A stretch of DNA of 64,000 bases from Escherichia coli. Its GTDB lineage: Bacteria; Pseudomonadota; Gammaproteobacteria; Enterobacterales; Enterobacteriaceae. Position numbers and translations under genes: made by a program. This document shows positions 10,358 to 55,281 of the stretch, in pieces. The stretch is from assembly GCF_036507355.1 (NCBI RefSeq), contig NZ_AP027877.1. One strand, written 5' to 3'. Within the stretch, counting starts at the first letter, position 1. Each line of letters begins with the position of its first letter. The notes under the pieces are model-generated. The model did not search any database. It was not told where the DNA came from and saw only the letters and a list, made by a program, of their open reading frames with translations.

Positions 10358-10375
10358 TGTAGTGATTTTGCACGC

Positions 10376-10758: not shown

Positions 10759-11568
10759 TTATAGGCCTCTGAATACCTCAGAAAGATTGAATTTTTTATA
10801 GTCCCTCTCTTGAATATTTCCATTTGATATCAATCGATTCATCTCTTCAACAAAATAATTTATATCATCACACTTGTTATTATCCGGAAGATCTGAGTAG
10901 TTATAATTCCACCATTTTATTCTCAACAGTTCATCAATAACATTTGAATCAAACCTAAATCTGATTATTTTTGCAGGAACTCCTGCAACTATGGCATATG
11001 GGGGCACATCTTTGGTAACAACGGAATTGGCAGCAATAACAGCACCATCACCTATTGCGATGCCACCTTTCAATACAACATCATTTCCTATCCAGACATC
11101 ATTTCCTATAATCGGATTTTCAGGTTTGGTAATGAATGGTTTCAATGTCCAGCTACGTTCAAACTCACTCATAGCAAACTTATCAAATTCACCGTTATAA
11201 GTCATCATGTGAGTAGTAAAACGATTCAAAGGATGATTTCCACCCATTATTTTTACATTTGATGCAATACTACAAAATCGACCTATACGTATATTCCCTG
11301 AAAAATGACAGGTCGGAAATGAAAAAGCGCCGACACTGGAGAAATTTTTTACAGGCATTGTTGAATATTCTTCAGCAATAACATTATCTTCAATTGTTAT
11401 CTTGTCACCTTTTGAGAAAAGAAATAAATTCCTTTCTTTATACGACTTCTTCCCCTTATGATTTAAAAAGATTTTATTATCCATACAAAACTCAAAGTGT
11501 TTTTTCGTCCATCTGAAGGTAAGGGTTTTATTTTTATCTTCCGTGAATTTGTACAATTGAACTTTCAT
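10759..11568 (-). CDS. hexapeptide-repeat acyltransferase, XAT-like (Vat/CatB-type xenobiotic acetyltransferase family)
   Basis: 269-aa ORF with ATG at 11566-11568; left-handed beta-helix hexapeptide repeats (IGNDVWIGNDVVLKGGIAIGDGAVIAANSVVTKDVPPYAIVAGVPAKIIRFRF) then WW-containing C-terminus (LRIKWWNYNY); strongly AT-rich compared with flanks. Confidence 0.75.
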   Translation of the reverse strand: MKVQLYKFTEDKNKTLTFRWTKKHFEFCMDNKIFLNHKGKKSYKERNLFLFSKGDKITIEDNVIAEEYSTMPVKNFSSVGAFSFPTCHFSGNIRIGRFCSIASNVKIMGGNHPLNRFTTHMMTYNGEFDKFAMSEFERSWTLKPFITKPENPIIGNDVWIGNDVVLKGGIAIGDGAVIAANSVVTKDVPPYAIVAGVPAKIIRFRFDSNVIDELLRIKWWNYNYSDLPDNNKCDDINYFVEEMNRLISNGNIQERDYKKFNLSEVFRGL

Positions 11569-13202: not shown

Positions 13203-13223
13203 AGCATATTCCTGTATCAGTGG

Positions 13224-14018: not shown

Positions 14019-14949
14019 CGAACGCTCCCAGACGTTTCACGAACGCCAGGTACAGTGCGATGAGAACAATCGGCACAAGGGTGAATGCCGCCGCCATCGG
14101 CATATTGCCAATCGCCCCCTGCTGGGAATAAACCATATTGCCGATAAAATATCCTGGAGGGCCAACCAGTTGCGGGACGATAAAATCACCCAGTGTGAGT
14201 GAGAAGGTAAAGATAGAGCCAGCGGCAATACCCGGGATCGCCAGCGGCAGCACCACATAGCGAAAGGTTTGTCGTGGACGCGCACCGAGATCAGCCGACG
14301 CCTGCAACAATGACGGCGGCAAACGCTCAAGCGCCGCCTGCACGGGCAGGATCATGAACGGCAACCAGATATAGAGAAACACCAGAAAGCGCCCCAGCCC
14401 GGAAGTTGACAGCGTATTGCCGCCCACCGCAGGTAATGTAAGGAACGCAGTCAGCAGTGGTTCCAGCCCAAGATGTTGTAAAAACCACTGCGCCACGCCA
14501 TCTTTTGCCAGCAATAACGTCCAGGCATAGGCTTTAACAATGTAGCTCGCCCACATCGGCAACATTACCGCAATATAAAAAAACGCTTTCATTTTCCCGC
14601 TGGTATAGCGCGCCATATACCACGCCATTGGAAAAGCCAGAATGGCGCTGGCGATAGTGACTGCCACAGCCATAGTCAGCGTGCGGAGAATGATGTCGTA
14701 ATTCGCCGGATTAAACAGCGCACGGATATTCGCCAGCGTCAGTTCCGGCGTTACCGACATGGTGAAATCGTCAAAAGTATAAAATCCCTGCCATAACAGT
14801 GTCAGCAGCGAGCCGAAATAGACAATGCCAAACCACATTAGCGGGCCAAGCAGCAGTAAAAACAGCCCCAGCCCCGGATTACGCCAGAAGAAACCGGACA
14901 CCTTACCCAGACCTGGACGTGAAGGTGATTGCAATACGTTCATCGCCAT
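14008..14949 (-). CDS. ydcU: ABC transporter permease
   Basis: 313-aa hydrophobic ORF; overlaps ydcV start. Confidence 0.85.
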
Positions 14950-15963
14950 TCACCTCTCCTCAACCAGCGGCACCATCACATCACGCGACCAGGAAACCAT
15001 CACCTGTTGTCCGGGCGTGAGCGTGGCAGGCAGTTCTTCGCCTGTCATATTGGCCTGACTCACCAGCAGTTTTTCACCGCCGTTCAGTCTCAGTTCAAAA
15101 CGGGTCGCCGCGCCCTGATATTGCACCGCCTGGATCGTGCCATTAGCCTGCACTTCGCCGGGGGTGTTGAAGCGGATATGTTCCGGTCGCAGGGCGAAGC
15201 TTCCCGTCATGCCGCAAAGATTCTCGGCCATTAGCGGATCAAAAACGTTGGATGTCCCGACGAATCCGGCAACAAACGGCGTGCGCGGGCGCATATAGAG
15301 ATCGCGCGGGGAATCGACCTGCTCAATGCGTCCATTATTGAAAACCGCCACACGATCGGACATCGATAACGCTTCGCCCTGATCGTGGGTAACGAAGATA
15401 AAAGTGATACCGAGAGACTGTTGCAGTTTTTTCAGTTCCAGCTGCATCTGCTCACGCAATTTGAGATCCAGTGCGCCGAGCGGTTCATCCAACAGCAATA
15501 CGCGCGGTTCATTCACCAATGCTCTGGCGATAGCAACCCGCTGGCGCTGACCACCAGAAAGTTGTGACGGTTTACGTTGCTGTACAAACCCCAACGCCAC
15601 TTTCTCCAGCGCCTCTTGCGCCATTGCGTGCCGCTGCTTTTTATTCACGCCTTTGACCATCAGCCCATAGGCGACATTGTCAAGAATCGACATATGCGGA
15701 AATAGCGCGTAGTCCTGAAAGACAGTATTCACGTCCCGCTCCCACGGTGGCAGATTGCTGGCGGGTTTACCAAAGATAGAGATAGCCCCGCCGGAAAGCT
15801 GTTCGAAGCCAGCAATCAGGCGCAGGCAGGTGGTTTTGCCGGAGCCGGACGGCCCCAGCATAGAGAAGAACTCACCATCTTTTATCGCAATACTGACGCC
15901 ATCTACTGCGCGCACGTCACCGTACAACCGCGAGACGTTGTCAAACTCCACTGCGTACGTCAT
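14950..15963 (-). CDS. ydcT: ABC transporter ATP-binding protein
   Basis: 337 aa; Walker A GPSGSGKTT, signature LSGGQRQR, Walker B LLLDEP. Confidence 0.9.
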   Translation of the reverse strand: MTYAVEFDNVSRLYGDVRAVDGVSIAIKDGEFFSMLGPSGSGKTTCLRLIAGFEQLSGGAISIFGKPASNLPPWERDVNTVFQDYALFPHMSILDNVAYGLMVKGVNKKQRHAMAQEALEKVALGFVQQRKPSQLSGGQRQRVAIARALVNEPRVLLLDEPLGALDLKLREQMQLELKKLQQSLGITFIFVTHDQGEALSMSDRVAVFNNGRIEQVDSPRDLYMRPRTPFVAGFVGTSNVFDPLMAENLCGMTGSFALRPEHIRFNTPGEVQANGTIQAVQYQGAATRFELRLNGGEKLLVSQANMTGEELPATLTPGQQVMVSWSRDVMVPLVEER

Positions 15964-15980
15964 AAAGCACCCCAGCGAAG

Positions 15981-17126
15981 TTAGCGACCGCCCATAATGG
16001 CAATGTAATCCTGCGTCCAGCGACTGTAGGGAATAAACTTGCCCCCTTCTGCTATAGGCGTTTTCCAGAAGGCGATTTTGTCGAAATAGTTAAAACCGTT
16101 GGTTTCACAACCTTTTTCGCCTAATAACGGACTGGCTTTACACCCTTGCGGCACTACCGGTAACGAGCCAAACCAGGCCGCCACATCGCCCTGCACTTTT
16201 GGCGTTAATGACCAGTTCATCCATTTGTAGGCGCAAACCGGATGTTTCGCTTCGCTATGCAGCATGGTGGTATCAGCCCAACCGGTAACACCCTCCTTCG
16301 GGAAAACGGTAGCAACAGGCTGGCCTTCGGCTTTCAGGGCGTTGGCCTGATAGGGCCAGGCACTGGAAGCAACCACACCCTCGTTTTTGAAATCGCTCAT
16401 TTGCACGGTAGTGTCATGCCAGTAGCGATGGATCAAACTGTGTTGAGCGCGCAGCACTTTCAGCACCGCCTGGTACTGTTCTTCGGTGAGTTGATACGGA
16501 TCGCTGATGCCCAACTGCGGCTGAGTGGCTTTAACGAACAACGCAGCGTCCGCAATATAGATAGGGCCATCATAAGCCTGAACGCGGCCTTTATTGCTCT
16601 TGCCGTCCGGCAGATTTTGCTCAACAAAAACCACTTGCCAGCTATCCGGCGGCGTCGGGAAGGTTTTAGTGTTGTACATCAGCAGGTTCGGCCCCCATTG
16701 GTAAGGTGTGCCGTAAACTTTGCCGCCAACGTTAAACCAGTCGCCTTTAACCACGCGCGGATCGAGCGTTTTCCAGTTGGGAATCAAGGCGGTATTAATC
16801 GGCTGCACGCGTTTACCCATAATCAAACGCAGCGAGGCATCGCCGGACGCCGTGACCAGATCGTAACCTCCTTTGGTCATCAGGCTGACCATTTCATCGG
16901 AAGTCGCGGCAGTTTTAACATTCACCGCGCAGCCTGTCTCTTTTTCGAACTGCGTTACCCAGTCGTATTGTTTATCAGTTTGTCCGCGTTCGATGTATCC
17001 CGGCCAGGCGATAATATCCAGTCGCCCTTCCGGTTTATCTAAATTGGTAGGCGGTTCGGCGGCGTGAGCGGTCATTATTGTCATGCTGAGCGCACACAGG
17101 CTGCTGCGGGCAAATGTCTTGCTCAT
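15981..17126 (-). CDS. ydcS: periplasmic substrate-binding protein (polyamine-type)
   Basis: 381-aa ORF with signal peptide; first gene of ydcSTUV-patD cluster. Confidence 0.85.
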   Translation of the reverse strand: MSKTFARSSLCALSMTIMTAHAAEPPTNLDKPEGRLDIIAWPGYIERGQTDKQYDWVTQFEKETGCAVNVKTAATSDEMVSLMTKGGYDLVTASGDASLRLIMGKRVQPINTALIPNWKTLDPRVVKGDWFNVGGKVYGTPYQWGPNLLMYNTKTFPTPPDSWQVVFVEQNLPDGKSNKGRVQAYDGPIYIADAALFVKATQPQLGISDPYQLTEEQYQAVLKVLRAQHSLIHRYWHDTTVQMSDFKNEGVVASSAWPYQANALKAEGQPVATVFPKEGVTGWADTTMLHSEAKHPVCAYKWMNWSLTPKVQGDVAAWFGSLPVVPQGCKASPLLGEKGCETNGFNYFDKIAFWKTPIAEGGKFIPYSRWTQDYIAIMGGR

Positions 17127-17370
17127 AAGGTCTTACTCCTGTCGTAATTAATTGTTCAGCCGCCGTGCCGTAAAAATATCTCCTTGTTTAACCATAGACG
17201 GCGGCTTGCAGGCACACCTTCGCCCCTGAGAAAATTTAATCAGGTTGTGAGCTACCGCGCATTATGCCGTCTGTAAGGTTATCTTCTGGAGTATAGACAA
17301 GGAGTTAGGAAATATGACTGCTATTCGAAATTCATATTACCCAACCTAAGAGGAATTAAATTAAACGCTA

Positions 17371-18777
17371 TTACAGCCGTTCTTGAATAAGTTTGCCTAA
17401 TTGTTTTACCGCCTGTTCTTCACGTTCTCCCCACTGCCACGCGGTATTAAAACGAAAAAAACGTGACCAGTTTTCACCGGTAGAAAACATTTTACCCGGC
17501 GCAATACTGATATGATGCGTCAGTGCCGCCAGGCTTAATTCGCCGGCATCTAACGGCTCGGGGAGCTCCAGCCAGAGAAAATAACCGCTGTCATTATGAT
17601 GAATTTTCACTTCCGCAGGCAGATAACGCAGCAGTGCCTGCCAGGCACGTTGTTTACGTTCCGCAAGCTGGCGACGCAGGCGACGAAGATGGGCGTCGTA
17701 TCGGCGCGTGGAAAGGTAATCCACCAGCGCAAGCTGCATCGGTGAGCTGGTGGAAAGCGTACTCATCAACTGCAATCGTTGAATTTTACGTGCATGTTTT
17801 CCGGCGGCGACCCAACCAATACGAAAACCAGGCACCAGACATTTCGAAAACGAAGAGCAATGCAAAACGCCATCGTGGCGATCCCACGCTTTCGCAGGCA
17901 GCGGTTTTTCCCGTCCAAAATAAAGTTCGCTGTAAACGTCATCTTCAATCAGCGTTACGTTGTACTGATTGAGCAACGCCACCAGTTGTGCTTTTTTTTG
18001 CGGCGTTAAGGTAAATCCGAGTGGATTCTGGCTATTAGTCATCAGCCAGCACGCTTTCACCGGATACTCCTGCAACGCCAGTTCCAACGCCTGAAGATCG
18101 ATCCCTTCTTTAACATCCGTCGCCACCGATAACGCCTTCAGCCGTAGCCGCTCCAGCGCCTGCAACGCACCGTAGAAACAAGGATTCTCTACTATCACCC
18201 AATCGCCCGGTTCAGTTACCGCTTGCAAACTGAGGTTTAATGCCTCTAACGCCCCGGCAGTAATGACAATTTCATCAGGAGAAATGGTGATCCCCTGTAA
18301 GGCATAGCGACGAGCAATAGCCTGACGCAGTTCTGCGTTTCCTGGCGGTAAGTTTTCAATCACGCTCATCGCTGTGGCGGTTTTGCTTACCTGCGCCAGC
18401 GAGCGGTTTAGTTGTTGGAGGGGGAAAAGTCGCGGGTCGGGAAAGGCCGAGGCAAACGGAACGACCGACGGATCGCGACTGGCCTGCAACATATCAAAAA
18501 TATAAGTGTTGATATCGACTGCTTCATCTCGAGTGACTGGAATGACTGGCGCTTTCGGCATTTTTATTGCCTGTGGCGCAACGTAATAACCCGACTGCGG
18601 TCGTGCGATAATATATCCCTGACTTTCGAGCAACTGATAGGCATGGCTGACAGTCATAAAGCTCATGCCAGAAAGCGCCACCTGGTCACGCAACGAAGGC
18701 AAACGATCGCCGGGTTGCCAGATACCCGACGCAATCTGCTCGCGTAATTGTTCTGCAAGCTGCTGGTATTTTTTCAT
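17371..18777 (-). CDS. ydcR: MocR-type regulator (GntR HTH fused to PLP aminotransferase-like domain)
   Basis: 468-aa ORF MKKYQQLAEQLREQIASGIWQPGDRLPSLRDQ... Confidence 0.85.
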   Translation of the reverse strand: MKKYQQLAEQLREQIASGIWQPGDRLPSLRDQVALSGMSFMTVSHAYQLLESQGYIIARPQSGYYVAPQAIKMPKAPVIPVTRDEAVDINTYIFDMLQASRDPSVVPFASAFPDPRLFPLQQLNRSLAQVSKTATAMSVIENLPPGNAELRQAIARRYALQGITISPDEIVITAGALEALNLSLQAVTEPGDWVIVENPCFYGALQALERLRLKALSVATDVKEGIDLQALELALQEYPVKACWLMTNSQNPLGFTLTPQKKAQLVALLNQYNVTLIEDDVYSELYFGREKPLPAKAWDRHDGVLHCSSFSKCLVPGFRIGWVAAGKHARKIQRLQLMSTLSTSSPMQLALVDYLSTRRYDAHLRRLRRQLAERKQRAWQALLRYLPAEVKIHHNDSGYFLWLELPEPLDAGELSLAALTHHISIAPGKMFSTGENWSRFFRFNTAWQWGEREEQAVKQLGKLIQERL

Positions 18778-18855
18778 TATCGAATCGTAATTATGTGCAG
18801 ATGATTCGGCAGTCTATATCAGTTGTTAAAAATGACAACTTTTCGTTAACTGTAA

Positions 18856-19293
<438 letters not shown>

Positions 19294-19317
19294 GTCATTA
19301 ACCTTTTTAATTGGCGA

Positions 19318-19494
19318 TTAACTCAAACCGAGTTGTTTCAGGATTGCTTTACGCAATGGTTCTTTAATCTCATCGCAGGGGTGACGCGGCATGACACTGC
19401 GCCTCCCATGAAACCTGAGTTTCAAATGGTTGCTGCCATTCGCTACATCGACGCCCTGAGATTCGAGCCAACGTCTGAACTCGCTTTGTTTCAC
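19318..19494 (-). CDS. hicA: HicA mRNA-interferase toxin
   Basis: Hand-translated 58 aa from GTG: MKQSEFRRWLESQGVDVANGSNHLKLRFHGRRSVMPRHPCDEIKEPLRKAILKQLGLS; directly upstream of hicB. Confidence 0.75.
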   Translation of the reverse strand: MKQSEFRRWLESQGVDVANGSNHLKLRFHGRRSVMPRHPCDEIKEPLRKAILKQLGLS

Positions 19495-19715
19495 ATCGCC
19501 TCCCTGCCGCTGAGTATATCAACAAAGTAAACATTAGTGTTTACCTCCGTGTGTAATTTGCTCGAAAATAGCACTAAATCGCCGCAACGGCAGAATGCAA
19601 TGCAAAATCAGGAAGGAAGATTCCAGAATTTCTTTGCGCTAATTTGCAAAACTGAATAATAACCTCAAGAAACGATCGGCATCATAGCGGCAAAAGGTAA
19701 GAAAAAGGTGGCAGG

Positions 19716-19946
19716 ATGTTTACGAAGGCGTTATCGGTTGTCTTATTAACGTGTGCGCTGTTCTCAGGACAACTCATGGCAGGGCACAAAGGACATGAAT
19801 TTGTGTGGGTAAAGAATGTGGATCATCAGCTGCGTCATGAAGCGGACAGCGATGAATTGCGTGCTGTGGCGGAAGAGTCGGCGGAAGGTTTGCGCGAGCA
19901 TTTTTACTGGCAAAAATCGCGCAAACCAGAAGCGGGACAACGTTGA
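19716..19946 (+). CDS. yncJ: small secreted protein (DUF2554)
   Basis: 76-aa ORF with signal peptide MFTKALSVVLLTCALFSGQLMA. Confidence 0.75.
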   Translation: MFTKALSVVLLTCALFSGQLMAGHKGHEFVWVKNVDHQLRHEADSDELRAVAEESAEGLREHFYWQKSRKPEAGQR

Positions 19947-19956
19947 GTCGTTTGAT

Positions 19957-19987
19957 GCCGGATGCGGCGTGACGCCTTACCCGGCAG
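19957..19987. repeat. REP (repetitive extragenic palindrome) element
   Basis: gccggatgcggcgtgacgccttacccggcagg matches the E. coli REP consensus; between yncJ and rlhA. Confidence 0.7.
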
Positions 19988-20037
19988 GCAATATCATGCA
20001 GATTCAATGAGTGGTGAGTAACCAGAAAACTGGCGTT

Positions 20038-21999
20038 TTACCCTTTTCGCTTCGGCAATGTTTTCAGCAGCTCATCCGGACTTACGGATGCCACTACGCT
20101 TCCCGGTAAAGGCATTTTCAGTATGTGATTTTTGATTTTGCCAATGACGTGCATCTCGCATGGGCGGCAATCAAACTTTAGCGTTAATACTTCATCGCCG
20201 TTAACCAGTTGCATTGGCGTAGCCTTCCAGCTTTTGATATTGCCTTTCGCCTGTTTCGGGCACAAATTAAAGGCAAAGCGCAGACAATGCTTGGTGATCA
20301 TCACCGGGACTTCGCCTTTCTCTTCATGTGCCTCATACGCCGCGTCAATCAGCTGCACACCATAGCGATGATAAAATTCACGCGCTTTCTGGTTGTAAAC
20401 GTTCGCGAGGAAACTCAGATGCGTTTGCGGATAAACCGGCGCAGGATCAGCAACCGGTTTACGGCTGCCGCGCTGGTAACTGGCAAGACGTGCAGCATCC
20501 AGCATGTCGGCGGCTTCGCGGCGGAACTGGTTTAACAGACTGTTTGGTACAAACAGCGCACCCGGCAAATTAATTTGCACATCGCGGGCGTAATAGATGG
20601 TTTGACCCAGTTTTGCCAGACCATCCTTTAGATTGTTCATTGCTTTTTCGGCGTTATTGGCTTCGTCGAACTGCCCGTCCAGCGTATGCGTGATGCTGAC
20701 ACCCTCTTCACTGGTGAGGGTCAGAATCAGTTGTTCCTGCCAGCCGCCCAGTTCAATGTCTACCGCCACCCGACGTTCGCTGGAGGTTTTTGTCAGTGCC
20801 TGCTGCCAGTTATGATCAAGATTACGGTTTAGTGGGTGATGCGGGCGAATTTTGTGCAAATCTGCTGGCATTTCATTGGGCCAGACGCGGTACTGATTTT
20901 CTCCGGTTTTCTCGACCGTATTGGCACGAAAACCGACGACTTCACGTTTAATCAACACGTTCAGGCCATCGCCATTTGCCAGTGGATCGGTAACGGCAAC
21001 ATCGAGATGATCTTTCGCCACTTTCAATACTTCGCCTACCGGCAGGCCGATAAATTTCGGCGAATCGAACGCGCCAATATCGCCTTTACGGGCATTCACA
21101 AAATAATCTGTGCTACCACGGTGGAAAGTCTTTTCCGTCGATGGAACAAAGAAATGTTCAGTACGACCTGATGAAGCGCGCGCCAGATCGCCACGTTCTT
21201 CAATAATGGCATCCAGCATCTGGCGATAATGGGCGGTGATATTCTTCACGTAGCTCATATCTTTGTAACGCCCTTCAATCTTGAAGGAGCGTACGCCAGC
21301 ATCAATCAGCGCGCCGAGGTTGGCAGTCTGATCGTTATCTTTCATCGACAGCAGATGTTTTTCATAGGAAACCACCCGCCCCTGATCGTCTTTCAATGTG
21401 TATGGCAAACGGCACGCCTGCGAGCAATCGCCACGGTTGGCGCTACGCCCTGTTTGCGCATGAGAAATGTAGCACTGACCCGAATAGGCCACGCACAGTG
21501 CCCCATGAATAAAGAATTCAATGGTCGCGTCCGTGGCCTGGTGAATCGCGCGGATCTGCTCAAGATTCAGCTCTCGCGCCAGCACAATCTGCGTGAAGCC
21601 AACATCAGAGAGGAACTTCGCTTTTTCTACTGTACGAATGTCGCACTGCGTACTGGCGTGCAGTTCAATCGGCGGAATATCAAGTTCCAGAATCCCCATA
21701 TCCTGAACAATCAGCGCATCGACACCGGTCTGGTAGAGGTCAGTAATCAGCCGTTGCGCGGGTTCCAGCTCATCATCATGCAAAATGGTGTTAAGCGTGA
21801 CGAAAATTTTTGCACCATAACGATGGGCAAACGGTACCAGCTCGGCAATATCTTTCAGGCTATTACTGGCATTATGACGGGCACCAAAACCAGGGCCGCC
21901 GATATAAACAGCATCGGCACCGTGCAAAATAGCTTCGCGGGCAATGGCGGCATCGCGTGCCGGGCTTAACAGTTCAAGTCGATGAGAAGATACGGTCAC
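20038..21999 (-). CDS. rlhA: peptidase U32-family protein (23S rRNA 5-hydroxycytidine synthase RlhA / YdcP)
   Basis: ORF 20038-22041 has no in-frame ATG at the N-terminus; GTG at 21999 gives 653 aa VTVSSHRLELLSPARDAAIAREAILHGADAVYIGG...; the 22041 GTG is an alternative start. Confidence 0.8.
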   Translation of the reverse strand: MTVSSHRLELLSPARDAAIAREAILHGADAVYIGGPGFGARHNASNSLKDIAELVPFAHRYGAKIFVTLNTILHDDELEPAQRLITDLYQTGVDALIVQDMGILELDIPPIELHASTQCDIRTVEKAKFLSDVGFTQIVLARELNLEQIRAIHQATDATIEFFIHGALCVAYSGQCYISHAQTGRSANRGDCSQACRLPYTLKDDQGRVVSYEKHLLSMKDNDQTANLGALIDAGVRSFKIEGRYKDMSYVKNITAHYRQMLDAIIEERGDLARASSGRTEHFFVPSTEKTFHRGSTDYFVNARKGDIGAFDSPKFIGLPVGEVLKVAKDHLDVAVTDPLANGDGLNVLIKREVVGFRANTVEKTGENQYRVWPNEMPADLHKIRPHHPLNRNLDHNWQQALTKTSSERRVAVDIELGGWQEQLILTLTSEEGVSITHTLDGQFDEANNAEKAMNNLKDGLAKLGQTIYYARDVQINLPGALFVPNSLLNQFRREAADMLDAARLASYQRGSRKPVADPAPVYPQTHLSFLANVYNQKAREFYHRYGVQLIDAAYEAHEEKGEVPVMITKHCLRFAFNLCPKQAKGNIKSWKATPMQLVNGDEVLTLKFDCRPCEMHVIGKIKNHILKMPLPGSVVASVSPDELLKTLPKRKG

Positions 22000-22071
22000 A
22001 TTCTTATCCAGTAGCTGAAAAATGGCGGCTATTTTAGCCACAAGCGCGACGTTGCGAAATAGTTTTCCCGC

Positions 22072-22608
22072 TTAACTGCGCGGGTAATGGATGAGGGAAT
22101 GAAAATGTACGGTTTGCTCCCCACCATTACGATAGACATGCGTGACGTCTGCAGCAAATCGAGCGCCTTCCCCACAATTAAGGCTCTTCCATTCACCATC
22201 AACGCACAGATCAAGTTGTCCATCAATGACGACGACATGTTCGATTACCCCCTTCTCATGGGGCGTCGATTCGCTTATTGCACCGGGTGCCATCTGAATC
22301 GAGAAGTGTTCAAAGCAGAGTTGTGGATCATAAGGAAACAGCGAAGTGATCACCATCGCCTGCTGTTGTGGATCATAAACTGAAGGCGTAGCGGACTGTG
22401 GCGGAGAAATAAATGTCGAAAATGGCACGTTCAACCCGGTAGCAATTTTCCATAATGTCGCGACCGTCGGGCTGGACTCATTACGCTCAATCTGTCCTAA
22501 CATTGCTTTAGAAACGCCCGTCGCTTCTGCCAGTCGCGAAAGACTCCAGCCGCGCTGCTGACGTAGTTGTTTAAGTGTGGTGGATAAAAAGCGAGCGAGA
22601 TTTTCCAT
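22072..22608 (-). CDS. sutR: XRE-family HTH regulator with cupin domain
   Basis: 178-aa ORF MENLARFLSTTLKQLRQQRGWSLSRLAEATGVSKAMLGQIERNESSP... Confidence 0.8.
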   Translation of the reverse strand: MENLARFLSTTLKQLRQQRGWSLSRLAEATGVSKAMLGQIERNESSPTVATLWKIATGLNVPFSTFISPPQSATPSVYDPQQQAMVITSLFPYDPQLCFEHFSIQMAPGAISESTPHEKGVIEHVVVIDGQLDLCVDGEWKSLNCGEGARFAADVTHVYRNGGEQTVHFHSLIHYPRS

Positions 22609-22699
22609 GCGACTCCTCCGGCAAAACGGAAGTTTATCACTTGTGCGTTATAACGGACAAATGCTACGGTGCCTGTACGCTATAACGCACGAGGTGACT

Positions 22700-23872
22700 A
22701 TGCGTCTGTTTTCTATTCCTCCACCCACGCTACTGGCGGGGTTTCTGGCGGTATTAATTGGCTACGCCAGTTCAGCGGCAATAATCTGGCAAGCAGCGAT
22801 TGTCGCCGGAGCCACCACTGCACAAATCTCTGGCTGGATGACGGCGCTGGGGCTGGCAATGGGCGTCAGTACGCTGACTCTGACATTATGGTATCGCGTA
22901 CCTGTTCTCACCGCATGGTCAACGCCTGGCGCGGCTTTGTTGGTCACCGGATTGCAGGGACTAACACTTAACGAAGCCATCGGCGTTTTTATTGTCACCA
23001 ACGCGTTAATAGTCCTCTGCGGCATAACGGGACTCTTTGCTCGTCTGATGCGCATTATTCCGCACTCGCTTGCGGCGGCAATGCTTGCCGGGATTTTATT
23101 ACGCTTTGGTTTACAGGCGTTTGCCAGTCTGGACGGTCAATTTACGTTGTGTGGAAGTATGTTGCTGGTATGGCTGGCAACCAAGGCCGTTGCGCCGCGC
23201 TATGCGGTAATTGCCGCGATGATTATTGGGATCGTGATCGTTATCGCGCAAGGTGACGTTGTCACAACTGATGTTGTCTTTAAACCCGTTCTCCCCTCTT
23301 ATATTACCCCTGATTTTTCGTTTGCTCACAGCCTGAGCGTTGCACTCCCCCTTTTTCTGGTGACGATGGCATCGCAAAACGCACCGGGTATCGCAGCAAT
23401 GAAAGCAGCCGGATATTCAGCTCCTGTTTCACCATTAATTGTATTTACTGGATTGCTGGCACTGGTTTTTTCCCCTTTCGGCGTTTATTCCGTCGGTATT
23501 GCGGCAATCACCGCGGCTATTTGCCAAAGCCCGGAAGCGCATCCGGATAAAGATCAACGTTGGCTGGCAGCTGCCGTTGCAGGCATTTTCTATTTGCTCG
23601 CAGGTCTGTTTGGTAGTGCCATTACCGGGATGATGGCTGCCCTGCCCGTAAGTTGGATCCAGATGCTGGCAGGTCTGGCGCTGTTAAGTACCATTGGCGG
23701 CAGTTTGTATCAGGCGCTGCATAATGAGCGTGAGCGCGACGCGGCGGTGGTGGCATTTCTGGTAACGGCAAGTGGATTGACGCTGGTCGGGATTGGTTCT
23801 GCGTTTTGGGGATTAATTGCCGGAGGTGTTTGTTACGTGGTGTTGAATTTAATCGCTGACAGAAACCGATAA
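22700..23872 (+). CDS. ydcO: BenE-family membrane transporter
   Basis: ORF 22577-23872; ATG at 22700 (MRLFSIPPPTLLAGF...) with GAGGTGA upstream; polytopic membrane protein. Confidence 0.8.
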   Translation: MRLFSIPPPTLLAGFLAVLIGYASSAAIIWQAAIVAGATTAQISGWMTALGLAMGVSTLTLTLWYRVPVLTAWSTPGAALLVTGLQGLTLNEAIGVFIVTNALIVLCGITGLFARLMRIIPHSLAAAMLAGILLRFGLQAFASLDGQFTLCGSMLLVWLATKAVAPRYAVIAAMIIGIVIVIAQGDVVTTDVVFKPVLPSYITPDFSFAHSLSVALPLFLVTMASQNAPGIAAMKAAGYSAPVSPLIVFTGLLALVFSPFGVYSVGIAAITAAICQSPEAHPDKDQRWLAAAVAGIFYLLAGLFGSAITGMMAALPVSWIQMLAGLALLSTIGGSLYQALHNERERDAAVVAFLVTASGLTLVGIGSAFWGLIAGGVCYVVLNLIADRNR

Positions 23873-35601: not shown

Positions 35602-36132
35602 TCAGGAACGTTTACGCGGCATCATGCGTAGAAGTGTGTTGTCCTTCCAGAAATAGTGGTGTGCCAGTGCAGCCGCAGCGTGCAACCCGATGACAAAATA
35701 TCCCAGATTCGCCAGCGTTTCATGCCACGACTTTAAGCTATCTACCCGTTCGAAATTGGCCTCTGAAGCGTAAGGCATCGTCAAACCAAACGCAAACCAC
35801 GGGTTGCCCCGGTTATACATCATCACCAAACCAATCACTGGCAGCGCAATAAACAGGAGATAAATCACCAAATGTCCCAAATGCGCCAGTCCCGTCATCA
35901 TCGGTTTCGGCTTAGGTATAATCGGCGGGGGTGGGTATTTCAGTCTTAACAAAAGACGAACCACCATCAGCACGAGAATTGAGATGCCACAGGAAACATG
36001 AATCATGTTGATGAGCGGCCGATCGCTACGTGGGAAGAAACCACGAAACTCCATTGCGCAATACGCTGCGATAACCAGCAAAAAGACCAGCCAGTGAATG
36101 CCGATTTGTAACCTTGAGTATTTATTTTCCAT
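35602..36132 (-). CDS. cybB: cytochrome b561
   Basis: ORF 35602-36168; ATG at 36132 (MENKYSRLQIGIHWLVFLLV...) gives 176 aa; conserved His in TM helices. Confidence 0.85.
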   Translation of the reverse strand: MENKYSRLQIGIHWLVFLLVIAAYCAMEFRGFFPRSDRPLINMIHVSCGISILVLMVVRLLLRLKYPPPPIIPKPKPMMTGLAHLGHLVIYLLFIALPVIGLVMMYNRGNPWFAFGLTMPYASEANFERVDSLKSWHETLANLGYFVIGLHAAAALAHHYFWKDNTLLRMMPRKRS

Positions 36133-36320
36133 AACATTTCCTGCTTTAACATAATTTTCCGTTAACATAACGGGCTTTTCTCAAAATTTCATTAAATATT
36201 GTTCGCCCGTTTTCAGTACGTTACGTTTCACTGTAAGAATGGAGATTGCCCATCCCACAATCCTGGTCTAAGCCTGGAAAGGATCAATTTTCATCCGAAC
36301 GTTCCTGACAGGAGAAAACC

Positions 36321-37322
36321 ATGAGTAAAGTTGGTATTAACGGTTTTGGTCGTATCGGTCGACTGGTGTTGCGTCGTTTACTTGAAGTCAAAAGCAACAT
36401 AGACGTTGTCGCTATTAATGATCTTACTTCCCCAAAAATTCTCGCCTATCTGCTGAAACATGATTCAAACTATGGTCCGTTCCCCTGGAGCGTTGATTTT
36501 ACGGAAGATTCACTTATCGTTGATGGGAAAAGTATCGCGATTTACGCCGAAAAAGAGGCTAAAAATATTCCGTGGAAAGCGAAAGGGGCAGAAATCATTG
36601 TCGAATGTACTGGCTTTTATACCTCCGCCGATAAATCGCAGGCGCATCTTGATGCTGGTGCGAAGAAGGTGTTGATTTCCGCTCCTGCCGGTGAAATGAA
36701 AACCATCGTTTATAACGTTAATGACGACACTCTGGATGGCAACGACACCATTGTTTCCGTGGCGTCATGCACCACTAACTGCCTTGCGCCGATGGCCAAA
36801 GCCTTGCATGACAGTTTCGGGATAGAAGTCGGCACGATGACGACCATTCATGCCTATACTGGCACCCAGTCACTGGTGAATGGCCCGCGTGGTAAAGATT
36901 TACGTGCTTCACGCGCAGCGGCAGAAAATATCATTCCCCACACTACGGGGGCGGCAAAAGCCATTGGTCTGGTGATCCCGGAACTGAGCGGCAAACTGAA
37001 AGGTCATGCGCAACGCGTGCCGGTGAAAACAGGTTCGGTCACTGAGCTGGTGTCCATTCTCGGAAAAAAAGTGACTGCCGAAGAGGTGAATAACGCACTT
37101 AAACAAGCAACCACCAATAACGAGTCATTTGGTTATACCGATGAAGAAATAGTCTCTTCCGATATCATTGGCAGCCATTTCGGTTCAGTGTTTGATGCCA
37201 CGCAAACGGAAATTACCGCCGTGGGCGATTTACAACTGGTGAAAACGGTCGCCTGGTACGATAACGAATATGGCTTCGTCACGCAGCTTATTCGCACCCT
37301 CGAAAAATTCGCTAAACTCTGA
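36321..37322 (+). CDS. gapC: glyceraldehyde-3-phosphate dehydrogenase C, uninterrupted reading frame
   Basis: 333-aa [23 protein letters not shown]...; NAD-binding GxGxxG; catalytic SCTTNC motif. Confidence 0.88.
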
Positions 37323-37330
37323 CGCGCACA

Positions 37331-37360
37331 GGCGGAGGGAAAAAACCTCCGCCTCTTTCA
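37331..37360. terminator. stem-loop ggcggagg/cctccgcc between convergent gapC and aldA
   Basis: Read directly; flanked by A-run and T-rich tract, so likely bidirectional. Confidence 0.6.
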
Positions 37361-37364
37361 CTCA

Positions 37365-38804
37365 TTAAGACTGTAAATAAACCACCTGGGTCTGCAGATA
37401 TTCATGCAGGCCATGTTTACCATCTGCGCCGCCAATACCGGATTTACGCCATCCGGCGTGGAAGCCTTGCATAGCTTCGAAGTTTTCACGATTGATGTAA
37501 GTTTCACCAAACTTCAGCCCTTTAATGGCTTTCATCGCGACGTTCAGATTTTGGGTATAGATTGATGAGGTCAGGCCGTAATCACTGTCATTAGCCATTG
37601 AGATAGCATCTTCCAGCGTGTCAAATGCGACTACCGGCAGAACCGGGCCAAAGGTTTCCTCATGCATAATCGACATTTCCTGGCGAACATCCAGCAGCAA
37701 TGTCGGCGGATAATAATATCCTTTCCCCTCTACCGCTTTGCCACCCAACGCCACTCTCGCCCCTTCTTCTACTGCGCGCGCCACTTTTTGCTCGACCCTT
37801 TCCAGCGCCGCGGCGTTAATCAACGGCCCCATCGCAATGTCGTTGCGTTCAGCGGGGTTACCAAATTGAACCGCCTGCATCGCTTCACCCAGCCGATTGA
37901 CGAACTGATCATAAATGCCTTTCTGTACATAAACACGTTCTGCACAGTTACACACTTGCCCACTATTAATGACGCGTGAATCAACGATGGCTTTGACTGC
38001 CAGTTCAAGATCGGCATCGTCCATTACGATAGCTGGTGCTTTACCCCCCAGTTCCAGGCACACTTTGGTGATGTTTTTCGCCGCAGTCGCCATGATCTTC
38101 TCACCTGCAGAGACGCTGCCTGTCATACTGACCATTGCGACCTTTGGGTTACCCGCCAGTTCTTGCCCAACGGTTTCACCACACCCCAGAACAAGGTTAA
38201 ACACGCCGCGCGGAAGGCCTATTTCATCGACGATTTTGGCGAATGCAATCGCATTGTTTGGCGTAAATTCACTGGGTTTAATGACAATGGTATTACCAGT
38301 CAAAAGAGCGGGAGCCATTTTGCGGGCAATGAGGAAGAACGGGAAGTTCCACGGCAGAATGCCGGTAGTCACACCAAGCGCACGTTTAAACAGAAGAATA
38401 TTTTCTCCTGGACGATCGCTTTGAATAATCTCGCCCTCGTAACGCCGTGCCCACTCCGCCATGTAATCGATATAGTCGGCAGTAAAAGCCACTTCGACTT
38501 CAGCCAGCTGCTGGATCTTGCCCCCTTCTTCAACAATCAGCGCACTGATTTCACTGGCGCGTTCGCGGATCCCGGCGGAGATTTTGCGCAACCAACTGGC
38601 GCGTTCAATAGCAGGCAACGCTTCCCATTCTGGTTGTGCACGTTCTGCTGCATCGATTGCCTTACGGGCATCCTCGGCCTGACCATCGGGTATGCGGGAA
38701 ATGACAGCCTCTGTAGCAGGGTTTACCACATCAATCCATGCGTCTCCACGCCAGGTAACAAACTGTCCATCGATATACATAGGATGTTGAACGGGTACTG
38801 ACAT
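37365..38804 (-). CDS. aldA: lactaldehyde dehydrogenase
   Basis: 479-aa ORF MSVPVQHPMYIDGQFVTWRGDAWIDVVNPATE... Confidence 0.9.
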   Translation of the reverse strand: MSVPVQHPMYIDGQFVTWRGDAWIDVVNPATEAVISRIPDGQAEDARKAIDAAERAQPEWEALPAIERASWLRKISAGIRERASEISALIVEEGGKIQQLAEVEVAFTADYIDYMAEWARRYEGEIIQSDRPGENILLFKRALGVTTGILPWNFPFFLIARKMAPALLTGNTIVIKPSEFTPNNAIAFAKIVDEIGLPRGVFNLVLGCGETVGQELAGNPKVAMVSMTGSVSAGEKIMATAAKNITKVCLELGGKAPAIVMDDADLELAVKAIVDSRVINSGQVCNCAERVYVQKGIYDQFVNRLGEAMQAVQFGNPAERNDIAMGPLINAAALERVEQKVARAVEEGARVALGGKAVEGKGYYYPPTLLLDVRQEMSIMHEETFGPVLPVVAFDTLEDAISMANDSDYGLTSSIYTQNLNVAMKAIKGLKFGETYINRENFEAMQGFHAGWRKSGIGGADGKHGLHEYLQTQVVYLQS

Positions 38805-49581: not shown

Positions 49582-50478
49582 TCAATACAACTCATCAAGT
49601 TTTCTCATCGCTTGTTCCCGTATTGCGCGCGTCTTACCGTTAAGCGCCAGCTGGCGAACTAAATCCAGTTCAGGGTTAACAAGCTCTAACGCCAGCAAAG
49701 GATCACGTTTCAGCCTCGCCTTTAATACATCAACTGGAAAACGGGGATTATTCATCGCCACAATCCACCACTCGGGATCAATTTCTGCCGCCAGTACTGC
49801 AGGCGGTGTGTGGCGGTTGTTAAGTGCGCCGAACTTGAAAAATGTGAGATTGCTTTTCGCCAGTGTACTCCACCATATACGATCCGGTTGTTTTGCCAGT
49901 ACATCCAGTTGTGCTAACGCATCGGGGTCTAGTGCATAATAAACACGTAACGCTTCGTTAACCTGCGCACGGGAACTGTTTTCCTGCCTCAGAAAAAACT
50001 TCGCCCAAATATCATTGCGTGGCGTGTTTTGCTGTAATTCCTTGAGAACAACAGCGGGTAAATTATCCCAACTAATTAATGCACTCTCTAAAAAGTCCCA
50101 GTCGTCCGAACGTATCAGAGAGGTGGCATTTAATAGCATCTGGTCATCAACTTCACCGTAGCTGATAAGCTCAGACAAAATCATATCAGCGCTGGTTTCA
50201 TATGCATCTGAATCTGCTTTGGGATTATTTTTCCGATGCGATAAAGCACGTTGCCAAATTTTTTGTTTCATCGACGTGCTCAGATACTGATTTTTCGCCA
50301 GATTACTCCACCCCTCAGGATCGTTGAAACGTGTCAATAACCGTTGTAAAGCAGCGTCAGAGTGAATTATCTGCATATCCCGACAGCAAAAGTAGGCAGG
50401 GGATTTTTTCTCCATCCTTTTAACAAAATTAAACTGTAAGTTATCTGGCAACGCTAAAAATAACGCATCTATTAGATC
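49582..50478 (-). pseudogene. ydbD: 3' portion of ydbD-like gene, 5' end replaced by IS1
   Basis: 289-codon ORF whose frame stays open up to and into the IS1 terminal repeat (first stop lies inside IS1 at 50494-50496); the intact gene is remembered as about 768 codons. Confidence 0.55.
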
Positions 50479-50493
50479 GGTAATGACTCCAAC

Positions 50494-50997
50494 TTATTGA
50501 TAGTGTTTTATGTTCAGATAATGCCCGATGACTTTGTCATGCAGCTCCACCGATTTTGAGAACGACAGCGACTTCCGTCCCAGCCGTGCCAGGTGCTGCC
50601 TCAGATTCAGGTTATGCCGCTCAATTCGCTGCGTATATCGCTTGCTGATTACGTGCAGCTTTCCCTTCAGGCGGGATTCATACAGCGGCCAGCCATCCGT
50701 CATCCATATCACCACGTCAAAGGGTGACAGCAGGCTCATAAGATGCCCCAGCGTCGCCATCGTGCGTTCACCGAATACGTGCGCAACAACCGTCTTCCGG
50801 AGCCTGTCATACGCGTAAAACAGCCAGCGCTGGCGCGATTTAGCCCCGACATAGCCCCACTGTTCGTCCATTTCCGCGCAGACGATGACGTCACTGCCCG
50901 GCTGTATGCGCGAGGTTACCGACTGCGGCCTGAGTTTTTTAAGTGACGTAAAATCGTGTTGAGGCCAACGCCCATAATGCGGGCTGTTGCCCGGCAT
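50494..50997 (-). CDS. insB: IS1 InsB (made as InsAB' transposase by -1 frameshift)
   Basis: 167-aa ORF; differs from the second copy at one residue (…[10 protein letters not shown]… versus …[10 protein letters not shown]…). Confidence 0.9.
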
Positions 50998-51191
50998 CCA
51001 ACGCCATTCATGGCCATATCAATGATTTTCTGGTGCGTACCGGGTTGAGAAGCGGTGTAAGTGAACTGCAGTTGCCATGTTTTACGGCAGTGAGAGCAGA
51101 GATAGCGCTGATGTCCGGCGGTGCTTTTGCCGTTACGCACCACCCCGTCAGTAGCTGAACAGGAGGGACAGCTGATAGAAACAGAAGCCAC
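50916..51191 (-). CDS. insA: IS1 InsA (transposition repressor / N-terminal part of transposase)
   Basis: 91-aa [43 protein letters not shown]... Confidence 0.9.
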
Positions 51192-51246
51192 TGGAGCACC
51201 TCAAAAACACCATCATACACTAAATCAGTAAGTTGGCAGCATCACC

Positions 51247-53479
51247 CACGTCGGTATCAGCCGTTTTGTTTGTGTTGCTAAATGCAATCGAACGGCTACT
51301 GTCAAGGTTGTGAACGTCATAACGCAATGCGTTATTCCAGTTCATGCCGTTGTCGAAGGACATCTGATGTTTCAGGCCAAAGAACTGGCTATAACCACCT
51401 GTGACGCCATTATCACCCGCTTTCTGCGCACCATCACCATCGAGACGAGCGATACCGTATTCCAGGCTCATGCTCTGGCTTTCGCTCAGGTCAACGGTTT
51501 TACGCAGTGCCAGCATGTCATACTCGGTGTTATTTCCGAGTTCCTCACGCGGGTCACCTTTCGCCACCACGTTAAAGGCCAGGCCATTGCCCACCTTCGG
51601 CGCGGCATCCGCCAGCATGCTGAAGCGGTTGCTTAACATACGCGCTTCACGGAATACCGTGGTCGCCTGGCTACCGCTCACCTGCTTCAGGGCGCTATTC
51701 AGTTCAGCAGTGGTGCCCACGTTCAGGCTGGTATACAGCTCGTTATTGGTGTAACCCGCATCCAGTGCCTTCGCCACATCGTTCACCGAAGCATCGGTCG
51801 CCACATCGGTGTAGGCGTTTTTGCTCATGATGACGTCAACGTTGCCGCTGGCATCGGTGCTGCCTTTGGCGGTCCATACCACGGACGTTGAGGTGATGGC
51901 ATCGGCGTCGGTCAGGTTGATGCCTTCCACCACGTTGTCGAAACTGACCGTGGTGTCTGCCGTACCGGCGGCGAAACCGGTGTTGATCCCGACACCATTC
52001 ATGCTGGCGTTGTTGACCTTCAGTTTACCGGCGCTGCCGTCAACGTTGGTACCGACGATATAGCCGTTGAGGTTGTTACTGCTGCCATCGCTACTACCGC
52101 TATCAGTCGTTTCACTGAAAGGTGAAGTGGTGTAAGTGTTTGGCATGTCCGGCAACGTGTAGTCGGTGTAATGCACTTCGGTATTGTTACCGCTGTTGCC
52201 GTTCACCCCTTCCACATTCACGCTGTCGCCCTGCTTAATCAACCCCGAACCAGTCACGCCGTCGGCAATCACCACCGTACCGTTGTTAACGATATGACCT
52301 TCTGTGCCCAGTACGCTGAACGCAAACGAGTCGTTAGCAAAAATATTGATCGTGCCGTTGTTCTCAATTACCGCATCGGCGGTGGCATTGGCATCCAGTT
52401 GCATACCAGTCAATCCGGTATCGGTGGTGCCTTCGGTACCGAGATTGATAACACCGTTGTTAACCAGCTGTGCGTTTTTATCGCCTTCCATCGCCACGGC
52501 GTTGTTGCCGCTGATGTTCATTACACCATCGTTGAGAGCAACATAGTTGTTGTGGGTGAATTTAACCGCGCTGGCGTTGTCTTTATCGAAGTTAATTACC
52601 CCGCCATCCTGGTTCCACAAGAAGGCATCGCTTTCTGTCGCACCGGCAGTACTTACCGCCACGGTGACTTTCGCATCCACCACGCCCTTGTTAATAAACT
52701 GGCTGGCGCCATCGTCATAGTGAATAGCGCCCGCACCTAATGCGGCATCCAGCGTCATTTCACCGGTGTTATATAACGTGGCGTTAGCATTGCTGCCCTG
52801 GAAGCGAATGGCGTTTTTGCTGTTATCAAGGATGAGTTTGCCGCTGTTGTTGAACGTTGACTTATCGTCAATATCCAGCGTCCCGGCATTGTTGTTTTCA
52901 TCCTGATAACCCATTTTCCAGGTACCCGCGTTATTCACTACCGCAGAGTTATAGAGAATCGCGCCTTTACGCGCCTCGCCGCCTGCAAGGTTATTGAATA
53001 CCGCATCGCCCTGAGCGTTAACGCGCGCCGACGCAATACCGCTGTTATTCACCGTACCATCGTGAAGTTGTAAAGTTGACAGGGAACCGGTGTTATTAAT
53101 TACCGCGTTGCTGTTTTTCTCAATTTTTACGACGTCATTAAGCGTTCCGTTGTTATTGAAGGTCCCTCCTTCCAAAGTCACCGTGTTCAATACACCTTCA
53201 TTGGTTAACGCACCGCCTGCATTCACGACGATGGCTGAGCTAATGGTTCCGCTCGACTCGTTAACCAGCGCACCATTTTCGAGTATCCTGATCGTTCCAT
53301 TTTTAACAGCACCCGCACTGGTGACATCCCCGTTGATAATCGCACCAGACGATAATAATACGGTCTCACCCGCAGAACTTAATACATCGCCATCATCATA
53401 CAAATCGGCGATATAATTATCCGTCGGATTATATTCATCGGCCCCCTGGCAAACCCCAAAGGTACAAATGGTGCCATAG
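51247..53479 (-). pseudogene. ydbA: internal fragment of an autotransporter adhesin gene (ydbA-like), both ends cut by IS1
   Basis: 757-codon ORF with no native start or stop (frame runs into both IS1 ends); N/G/T/S-rich beta-helix repeats of a passenger domain, then the start of a beta-barrel translocator domain. Confidence 0.7.
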
Positions 53480-53534
53480 GGTGATGCTGCCAACTTACTG
53501 ATTTAGTGTATGATGGTGTTTTTGAGGTGCTCCA

Positions 53535-53810
53535 GTGGCTTCTGTTTCTATCAGCTGTCCCTCCTGTTCAGCTACTGACGGGGTGGTGCGTAACGGCAAA
53601 AGCACCGCCGGACATCAGCGCTATCTCTGCTCTCACTGCCGTAAAACATGGCAACTGCAGTTCACTTACACCGCTTCTCAACCCGGTACGCACCAGAAAA
53701 TCATTGATATGGCCATGAATGGCGTTGGATGCCGGGCAACAGCCCGCATTATGGGCGTTGGCCTCAACACGATTTTACGTCACTTAAAAAACTCAGGCCG
53801 CAGTCGGTAA
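53535..53810 (+). CDS. insA: IS1 InsA
   Basis: 91-aa ORF identical in protein sequence to the other IS1 copy. Confidence 0.9.
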
Positions 53811-54232
53811 CCTCGCGCATACAGCCGGGCAGTGACGTCATCGTCTGCGCGGAAATGGACGAACAGTGGGGCTATGTCGGGGCTAAATCGCGCCAGCGCT
53901 GGCTGTTTTACGCGTATGACAGGCTCCGGAAGACGGTTGTTGCGCACGTATTCGGTGAACGCACGATGGCGACGCTGGGGCGTCTTATGAGCCTGCTGTC
54001 ACCCTTTGACGTGGTGATATGGATGACGGATGGCTGGCCGCTGTATGAATCCCGCCTGAAGGGAAAGCTGCACGTAATCAGCAAGCGATATACGCAGCGA
54101 ATTGAGCGGCATAACCTGAATCTGAGGCAGCACCTGGCACGGCTGGGACGGAAGTCGCTGTCGTTCTCAAAATCGGTGGAGCTGCATGACAAAGTCATCG
54201 GGCATTATCTGAACATAAAACACTATCAATAA
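53729..54232 (+). CDS. insB: IS1 InsB
   Basis: 167-aa ORF. Confidence 0.9.
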
Positions 54233-54764
54233 GTTGGAGTCATTACCCTGGACTTACGTGTTTTTTCGGTTGAGTCGGGTATTGAAGTATCCGCAGCCCA
54301 TGTCTGGCTACTTAACGCCATGGCAACACAAACAGACAATAATTTTTTCCTTTGCATATAAAATTCCTTAGATCTAGACCGTGCGTAACAAGCCATGCAG
54401 AATTTGAAGATAAATCGTAGTAAATATTCATAGTGAAATAAGCAATAAAGAAATGCTTATATAATTCACAAAATCAATATTAAAATCAGGCAAGTAAAAG
54501 CATACAAAAAAACAGTTGATGGAATTATATTCCACAAAAAACTCACTTCAATCTAAAAATTAACGACAAAAAACAAAAACACACTAATAATTCATTGACG
54601 CTGCATATATATTTTGTGATTACATATATATTGGTAATGATTTGTTATTTAAGGGAAGGATATATAAGGTTTTTGTAGAAATATCCACGGTAATTAAGCA
54701 TGCTAACGTCAGTTTAAATACTGTAAAAGATCATTAATAGATACATTTTGTAGCCAACTATAAT

Positions 54765-55091
54765 TTATTTGCGCAACCATTTACCATTAATTCCCTGAAC
54801 ATATTGCCCCGACTTCGCGCGAGCAACAAGCTTTTGTCCAGCCAGTTTGGCTATCTCTTTAGTGGATACATTATTTTGCTTTGCCAGTTGTTGGTAACTA
54901 TGGTTACGAGCTTCATTAATATCTTTTACTAATGCCTGTGTTTCGGCATCCGTTTGTAGCGCCACCAGGTAACCGTTAAGCGTTTCACCTACCCGCCCCT
55001 GACTTCTGGCTTCGTTCAGGGTTAAAGCCATTGCACTGTCGCTCATCAGGCCAATGGCCCATACAGCTATGAGTAATGTTCTTTTCATCAT
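54765..55091 (-). CDS. ydbL: periplasmic protein (DUF1318)
   Basis: ORF 54765-55169; ATG at 55091 (MMKRTLLIAVWAIGLMSDSAMA...) gives about 108 aa with signal peptide. Confidence 0.75.
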   Translation of the reverse strand: MMKRTLLIAVWAIGLMSDSAMALTLNEARSQGRVGETLNGYLVALQTDAETQALVKDINEARNHSYQQLAKQNNVSTKEIAKLAGQKLVARAKSGQYVQGINGKWLRK

Positions 55092-55095
55092 CACC

Positions 55096-55281
55096 TCAAA
55101 ATAGATCGCTACGGGTTTTGAGCAGGTCTTCAACGTCCTTATCCGCTTTAATGATGATTTCATGCTCAATTTTAACGTTCATATTAATGGTGATTGGCTC
55201 TTTCGGCGCAGCCACTTCAATGCGAGGCGTGCAACCAACCAACATAAAAGAGGACGCAAACGCGGCTATCACTATTTTCAT
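55096..55281 (-). CDS. ynbE: small lipoprotein
   Basis: 61-aa ORF with lipobox MLVGC. Confidence 0.75.
   Translation of the reverse strand: MKIVIAAFASSFMLVGCTPRIEVAAPKEPITINMNVKIEHEIIIKADKDVEDLLKTRSDLF

Follow-up and report, generated by a model that had tools for sequence, protein, structure and literature searches.

An intact gapC in an Escherichia coli of non-K-12 background, with a private Asp-to-Asn change at a near-invariant position

The GAPDH family of Escherichia coli counts, besides GapA and GapC, a third member, Epd/GapB, which is an erythrose-4-phosphate dehydrogenase. In 1998 Espinosa-Urgel and Kolter reportedly found gapC to be expressed and adaptive for E. coli in the aquatic environment.

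The enzyme encoded by gapC has since been described under the name EcGAPDH1. It was crystallised and is an active enzyme, whose turnover is very high and whose Km for G3P is 0.73 mM (PMC8615399). Its activity is abolished by the C150A replacement and is lowered, relative to the wild type, about 38,000-fold by C150S and about 8,000-fold by H177A (PMC8615399). The NAD ligands are Arg11, Ile12, Asp34, Arg78, Ser120 and Asn315, the Ps site is made of Thr180, Thr182 and Arg232, and the "new Pi" site of Ser149, Thr151 and Thr209 (PMC8615399). In K-12, the gapC of MG1655 (b4493, formerly gapC_1 b1417 and gapC_2 b1416), 1001 nt long and part of the aldA-gapC-cybB locus, carries the annotation of a pseudogene. 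ChIP-seq of sigma-S gave a peak between gapC_1 and cybB in K-12 (PMC4447067), and gapC_1 is listed as one of the genes with a response in carbon-limited chemostats (PMC4512719).

The gapC reading frame and its surroundings

In the window, that is, the whole 64-kb stretch of DNA analysed here, gapC forms a single open reading frame from an ATG start to a TGA stop. Neither the list of open reading frames nor the direct reading of the sequence shows an internal stop or a frameshift, in agreement with the initial annotation, which had described the 333-codon frame as uninterrupted. The gene and its surroundings contain the following features.

35602..36168, minus strand: cybB (cytochrome b561 / superoxide oxidase), divergent neighbour of gapC, from the open reading frame and the annotations of K-12 and other strains
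36169..36320, no strand: intergenic region between the divergent cybB and gapC, presumed to hold the promoter; aligned in four strains
36310..36314, plus strand: Shine-Dalgarno AGGAG, 6 nt 5' of the gapC ATG, read from the sequence
36321..37322, plus strand: gapC coding sequence, 333 codons and TGA, from the open reading frame list and direct reading
36339..36356, plus strand: GFGRIG NAD-binding Rossmann motif, codons 7-12, from the translation
36768..36770, plus strand: catalytic Cys150 (TGC) within SCTTNC, from the sequence
36849..36851, plus strand: catalytic His177 (CAT), from the sequence
37330..37354, no strand: GC-rich hairpin of 9 bp in the 42 nt that separate gapC from the convergent aldA
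37365..38804, minus strand: aldA (aldehyde dehydrogenase A), convergent neighbour of gapC, from the open reading frame and the K-12 annotation

The order cybB-gapC-aldA is the same in K-12 and in the 13 other E. coli genomes examined. Since cybB has 531 nt in the annotation of other strains, its true start is probably at 36132. The cybB-gapC intergenic region has a mean column identity of 94% in the alignment of four strains, and the 150 nt 5' of gapC hardly vary between the window, K-12, O157:H7 and PapRG-06-5, the Shine-Dalgarno sequence being strictly the same in all four. Within this region, the window has a private G at 36205, where K-12, O157:H7 and PapRG-06-5 have an A. A scan of 35900-37500 for consensus sigma-70 promoters returned 2 sites for 2.1 expected from shuffled sequences, and as this is no better than the shuffles, no gapC promoter was called. 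On the other side of the gene, the hairpin of the gapC/aldA spacer folds as RNA at -18.9 kcal/mol (z = -4.03 against shuffles) and is probably a terminator shared by the two genes; its T tail is weak, and the terminator scan missed it for this reason.

Both parts of the two-domain GAPDH architecture, an N-terminal NAD-binding domain and a C-terminal catalytic domain, were found in the protein, with Pfam Gp_dh_N (PF00044) on residues 3-102 (E 9.9e-36) and Gp_dh_C (PF02800) on residues 155-313 (E 1.4e-56), each far past the cut-off. The type I GAPDH equivalog of NCBIfam, TIGR01534, scored 442.2 bits for a cut-off of 367.2. The catalytic Cys and the NAD-binding motifs mentioned in the initial annotation are indeed present, as Cys150 within SCTTNC, the GFGRIG motif and Asp34, an acidic residue that favours NAD. 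Twelve catalytic and ligand residues were checked (Arg11, Ile12, Asp34, Ser149, Cys150, Thr151, His177, Thr180, Thr182, Thr209, Arg232 and Asn315) and all occur in the GapC of the window, including the complete Ps site (Thr180, Thr182, Arg232) and the complete new-Pi site (Ser149, Thr151, Thr209). They are essentially invariant in 134 close orthologs, with Arg at position 11 in 134/134, Ile at position 12 in 133/134 and Asp at position 34 in 134/134. In a wider set of 150 diverse representatives of the GAPDH family, Cys150 is kept in 147 and His177 in 148. Taken together, these data make it highly probable that gapC is here an intact and ordinary allele of the chromosomal, enterobacterial "bacterial-type" class I GAPDH, which is NAD-dependent and phosphorylating.

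K-12 lesions, frequency in the species and genomic background

The initial annotation had described gapC as a split pseudogene in K-12. This description is borne out both by the annotation of b4493 and by a global alignment of the window with the MG1655 gene, in which 21 substitutions and one deletion were counted (97.8% nucleotide identity) and in which a nonsense codon and a -1 frameshift were located at the following sites.

36435..36437, plus strand: first K-12 lesion site, codon 39, AAA (Lys) in the window and TAA in K-12
37064..37070, plus strand: second K-12 lesion site, codons 248-250, A7 in the window and A6 in K-12 (-1 frameshift)

The A6 tract shifts the frame in K-12, so that the C-terminal third of the gene runs on in frame +2. 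As the window has neither TAA39 nor A6, its gapC does not belong to the K-12-type pseudogene.

The distribution of both states was followed in the complete E. coli genomes of RefSeq. A gapC match was present in 5417 of the 5426 genomes, nearly all of them at 95-99.6% identity; nine genomes had no match, and five matches lay on records labelled as plasmids. The K-12 81-mer centred on TAA39 was found exactly in 1152 genomes out of 5426 and the K-12 81-mer with A6 in 1039 out of 5426, a gap of about 110 genomes which hints that the two lesions do not always go together. Among the non-exact matches listed for the A6 81-mer, all span 82 bases, and these genomes thus carry A7. The K-12 lesions are therefore a natural lineage marker, found in about a fifth of the sequenced genomes, and not a laboratory artefact. 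The haplotypes that carry them include isolates from animals, wild ones among these, and clinical isolates; one of them, the pig faecal isolate PEC422, has the TAA39 haplotype and a gapC labelled "frameshifted; internal stop" by PGAP.

We sampled 11 genomes without the K-12 haplotype, picked at even steps from the ranking, among them O104:H4 2009EL-2071 and an O157:H7 RIMD strain, together with PapRG-06-5, which has the closest allele. In all 12, the gapC coding sequence has 1002 nt and is free of stops, and its product has a WP accession. The pairwise dN/dS among the intact alleles, the one of the window being left out, is about 0-0.08, a sign of purifying selection on gapC in the species. 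Outside the species, E. albertii, Citrobacter, Klebsiella, Trabulsiella and Enterobacter have orthologs of 86-96% identity. The intact gene is thus the usual state in E. coli, a majority state and not a special retention, and an intact gapC is ordinary because most E. coli keep it.

Other forms of the gene were encountered in the species. In LF82, 19 residues immediately ahead of the catalytic Cys are deleted in frame; other variants lack 15-19 residues elsewhere in the protein, again by in-frame deletion, and GapC forms of 383 aa have a C-terminus that is frameshifted or read through. This assortment of lesions suggests that gapC has decayed repeatedly and independently.

The initial annotation had also proposed a non-K-12 background for this DNA. 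A BLAST comparison of the window with MG1655 1,432,000-1,530,000 gave four collinear blocks, interrupted as follows.

597-10463: collinear block, 98.2% identity to MG1655
10464-11776: 1.3-kb islet between the regions of patD and yncL, absent from K-12, seen as a BLAST gap
10759..11568, minus strand: open reading frame of a 269-aa hexapeptide-repeat transferase in the islet (Pfam Hexapep, E 4e-13)
11777-23871: collinear block, 98.8% identity to MG1655
23872-50478: collinear block, 97.9% identity to MG1655
50479-51247 and 53479-54247: IS1 pair, inverted, 99.9% identical to each other over 769 bp
54767-64000: collinear block, 97.2% identity to MG1655

Positions 1-596 and 54248-54766 of the window have no alignment to this MG1655 region. 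The islet at 10464-11776 corresponds to what had been called the acetyltransferase islet in the initial annotation. IS609, which occupies 1,503,161-1,504,908 in K-12, is absent from the window, and its flanks join cleanly at 23871/23872. About 30 kb of K-12 (1,446,202-1,476,553) are missing, the gap being bounded by the IS1 pair (window 50479-54766); the missing block contains feaR, feaB, tynA, paaZ-paaY, ynbG, ydbA with IS2/IS30, pdxI and the 5' part of ydbD. Between the two IS1 copies lies a ydbA/BigA-like fragment of 2.2 kb with about 85% identity to K-12 ydbA, and ydbD is cut off at the first IS1 (open reading frame 49582..50451). As the fea/tyn/paa block is absent, the strain should be without phenylacetate and phenylethylamine catabolism. 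The identity of 97.2-98.8% in the blocks, the lack of IS609, the hexapeptide-transferase islet, the two IS1 and the missing block of about 30 kb confirm the non-K-12 background independently of gapC. Since the K-12 lesions mark one natural lineage, the intact gapC itself is weak evidence for anything beyond "not that lineage".

Over the 24 kb of window 25000-49000, none of the 5426 complete RefSeq genomes of E. coli exceeded 98.6% identity, so that the lineage from which the window comes is not closely represented among them. This distance and the IS1 copies led us to consider a Shigella origin, which was set aside, the exact GapC protein being filed under E. coli in NCBI. Near-identical draft or GenBank assemblies exist, namely GCA_905398585.1, SRR17480487 and the record carrying BED22528.1.

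A private change at position 187

Two codons of the window's gapC differ from all or nearly all of the alleles and orthologs with which they were compared.

36540..36542, plus strand: codon 74, ATT (Ile), V74I, private, Val elsewhere
36879..36881, plus strand: codon 187, AAT (Asn), D187N, in the S-loop, GAT in K-12 and in every other E. coli allele examined

At position 74, 133/134 close orthologs have Val, as do all 12 E. coli alleles of the sample. Position 187 is Asp in 132/134 close orthologs, in the same 12 alleles and, among the 150 diverse GAPDH representatives (38-85% identity), 147 of which align at this site, in 146; it is as conserved in this set as Cys150 (147), His177 (148) and Arg232 (145). 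The GapC of the window has Asn where the family has this near-invariant Asp of the S-loop. As Asp187 is a conserved residue and not a formal criterion of the family, the membership in the GAPDH family stands and it is the function that becomes less certain. The 81-mer around codon 187 was found exactly in none of the 5426 complete genomes, 4788 of which have a match with one or more mismatches, and the exact GapC protein of the window is known from only 5-8 contigs, filed under E. coli in NCBI.

All 1002 nt of the gene are identical in GCA_905398585.1 and SRR17480487, two independent public assemblies whose flanks show only 2 differences from the window across 7.0 kb and 4.5 kb. D187N is consequently a real substitution and not an error. 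The closest allele, that of PapRG-06-5 (from a baboon), differs from the window at four nucleotides, two of which are responsible for V74I and D187N. The branch leading to the window thus holds 2 non-synonymous and 2 synonymous changes in gapC, too few to show relaxed selection.

We take position 187 of GapC to be Asp186 in the numbering of the B. stearothermophilus GAPDH. When this Asp186 was mutated there together with Glu276, the tetramer was reportedly split into inactive dimers. In the E. coli protein, residue 187 lies ten positions past the catalytic His177. The literature searched on the S-loop Asp contained no description of the role of the residue; the extent of the loops is citable, the S-loop being 186-192 and the R-interface loop 181-206 in the numbering of the group B Streptococcus GAPDH (PMC5119734). 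By analogy with that numbering, residue 187 is within both loops.

The first alternative to be weighed is a cryptic loss of function, in which D187N, perhaps together with V74I, cripples folding, the assembly of the tetramer or the cooperativity towards NAD in spite of the open frame. The near-invariance of Asp187 and its position in a subunit-interface loop which touches the NAD region of the neighbouring subunit (ranges in PMC5119734) point in this direction, as do the rarity of the allele, with no exact 81-mer in 5426 genomes, and the repeated disabling of gapC elsewhere, by the K-12-type lesions, the in-frame deletion of LF82 and the frameshifts of the 383-aa variants. The branch has 2 non-synonymous for 2 synonymous changes, where the dN/dS of the species is about 0-0.08; a relaxed constraint would fit this, but such counts are insufficient to establish it. 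Against the loss, the exchange of Asp for Asn is isosteric and keeps the hydrogen-bonding capacity, the catalytic and checked ligand residues of GapC are intact, and one natural GAPDH representative with Asn at the equivalent of position 187 keeps its Cys and its His. Because the exchange is isosteric and is found in this natural family member with its catalytic residues, we consider a serious impairment to be unlikely, although well within what must be reckoned with, and we regard a cryptic loss as having the same limited chance. To the same minor extent, gapC could be here a missense "pseudogene in waiting", as a part of the recurrent decay of gapC in E. coli.

Far less probable is a second alternative, according to which GapC would be a GAPDH-family enzyme with another job, either an erythrose-4-phosphate dehydrogenase of the Epd/GapB kind or an ArsJ-associated GAPDH that handles arsenate. 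Specialised members of this type exist and their models give partial scores on the GapC of the window. However, the Epd models reach 277.4 bits for a cut-off of 539 and 273 bits for a cut-off of 530.55, the ArsJ-associated model reaches 303 bits for a cut-off of 450, and among these GAPDH models the general type I equivalog alone passes. The open reading frame list of the window contains no arsJ adjacent to gapC, and the near-identical EcGAPDH1 oxidises G3P efficiently (PMC8615399).

An artefact of assembly or sequencing in the intact frame or in the N187 codon, for which the homopolymeric nature of the K-12 frameshift site (A7), a classic place for sequencing errors, could be invoked, is effectively refuted by the agreement of the two independent assemblies over the whole gene and by the A7 of every non-K-12-type genome listed.

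Predicted role and comparison with known GAPDHs

For an intact GAPDH, the preferred reading, the following course of catalysis can be proposed. By homology to EcGAPDH1, GapC would form a tetramer, in which Cys150 would attack glyceraldehyde-3-phosphate to give a thiohemiacetal, with Thr180, Thr182 and Arg232 of the Ps site keeping the substrate in place. His177 would assist the transfer of a hydride to NAD+, and a phosphate bound at the "new Pi" site (Ser149, Thr151, Thr209) would then cleave the thioacyl enzyme to give 1,3-bisphosphoglycerate. For the window, we infer the catalysis, the oligomeric state and the expression of GapC from the described system; NAD-dependent oxidation of G3P has been shown for EcGAPDH1, which is three residues apart. 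Such an enzyme plays a role auxiliary to that of GapA, and this role probably depends on stationary phase or on the aquatic environment.

The initial annotation had suggested that the strain may retain a functional third GAPDH. The functional part of this suggestion is favoured by the intact frame and by the near identity to the active EcGAPDH1, but gapC is to be counted as the second true GAPDH and not as the third. That the gene is functional in this strain is likely, although not assured given D187N; an open frame with catalytic motifs is no proof of function here, because of a rare change at a near-invariant residue.

The observation of an intact gapC is accurate and its interpretation sound, for a gene that was already known and has been characterised biochemically and structurally. 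The importance of this intact copy beyond annotation is small. For annotation, the status of pseudogene that gapC has in K-12 should not be carried over to other strains. The sole new point is the private D187N allele, which is a residual curiosity, and it is only the comparison across the family that reveals the change at the near-invariant position 187. Should D187N impair assembly, cooperativity or activity, which we think improbable rather than far-fetched, it would add a missense route to the ways in which gapC decays in E. coli, beside the nonsense/frameshift type of K-12 and the in-frame deletions of the LF82 kind, and it would offer a ready natural variant for probing the role of the invariant Asp.

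Among the known systems, the K-12 pseudogene occupies the orthologous locus between cybB and aldA and has in common with the window the conserved upstream region and Shine-Dalgarno sequence; it differs by TAA39 and A6, neither of which occurs in the window. The work of 1998 on the aquatic environment is reported to have already taken E. coli gapC as a working gene.

An assignment of GapC to the GapA type was tried and rejected, PRK15425 giving 295.5 bits for a cut-off of 662. GapA (b1779), the main glycolytic GAPDH, has the same fold, the same chemistry and the same SCTTNC motif as GapC, whereas the identity between the two proteins is only 45%, the gene lies at a separate locus, and the segment equivalent to position 187 reads TVDGP, with the Asp, in GapA and LVNGP in the GapC of the window.

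The closest system remains EcGAPDH1 (PDB 7C5F and sister entries; Zhang et al. 2021), which is the best match among solved structures (E 2.4e-218) and is the product of the same gene, with 333 residues. The two proteins are identical at 330 of the 333 positions and have in common the catalytic residues, the Ps and new-Pi sites and the checked NAD residues. They differ by Val74, Glu104 and Asp187 in EcGAPDH1 for Ile74, Asp104 and Asn187 in the window, position 104 being polymorphic among the orthologs. The allele of O104:H4, among others, is set apart from the GapC of the window by the same three differences (I74V, D104E and N187D).
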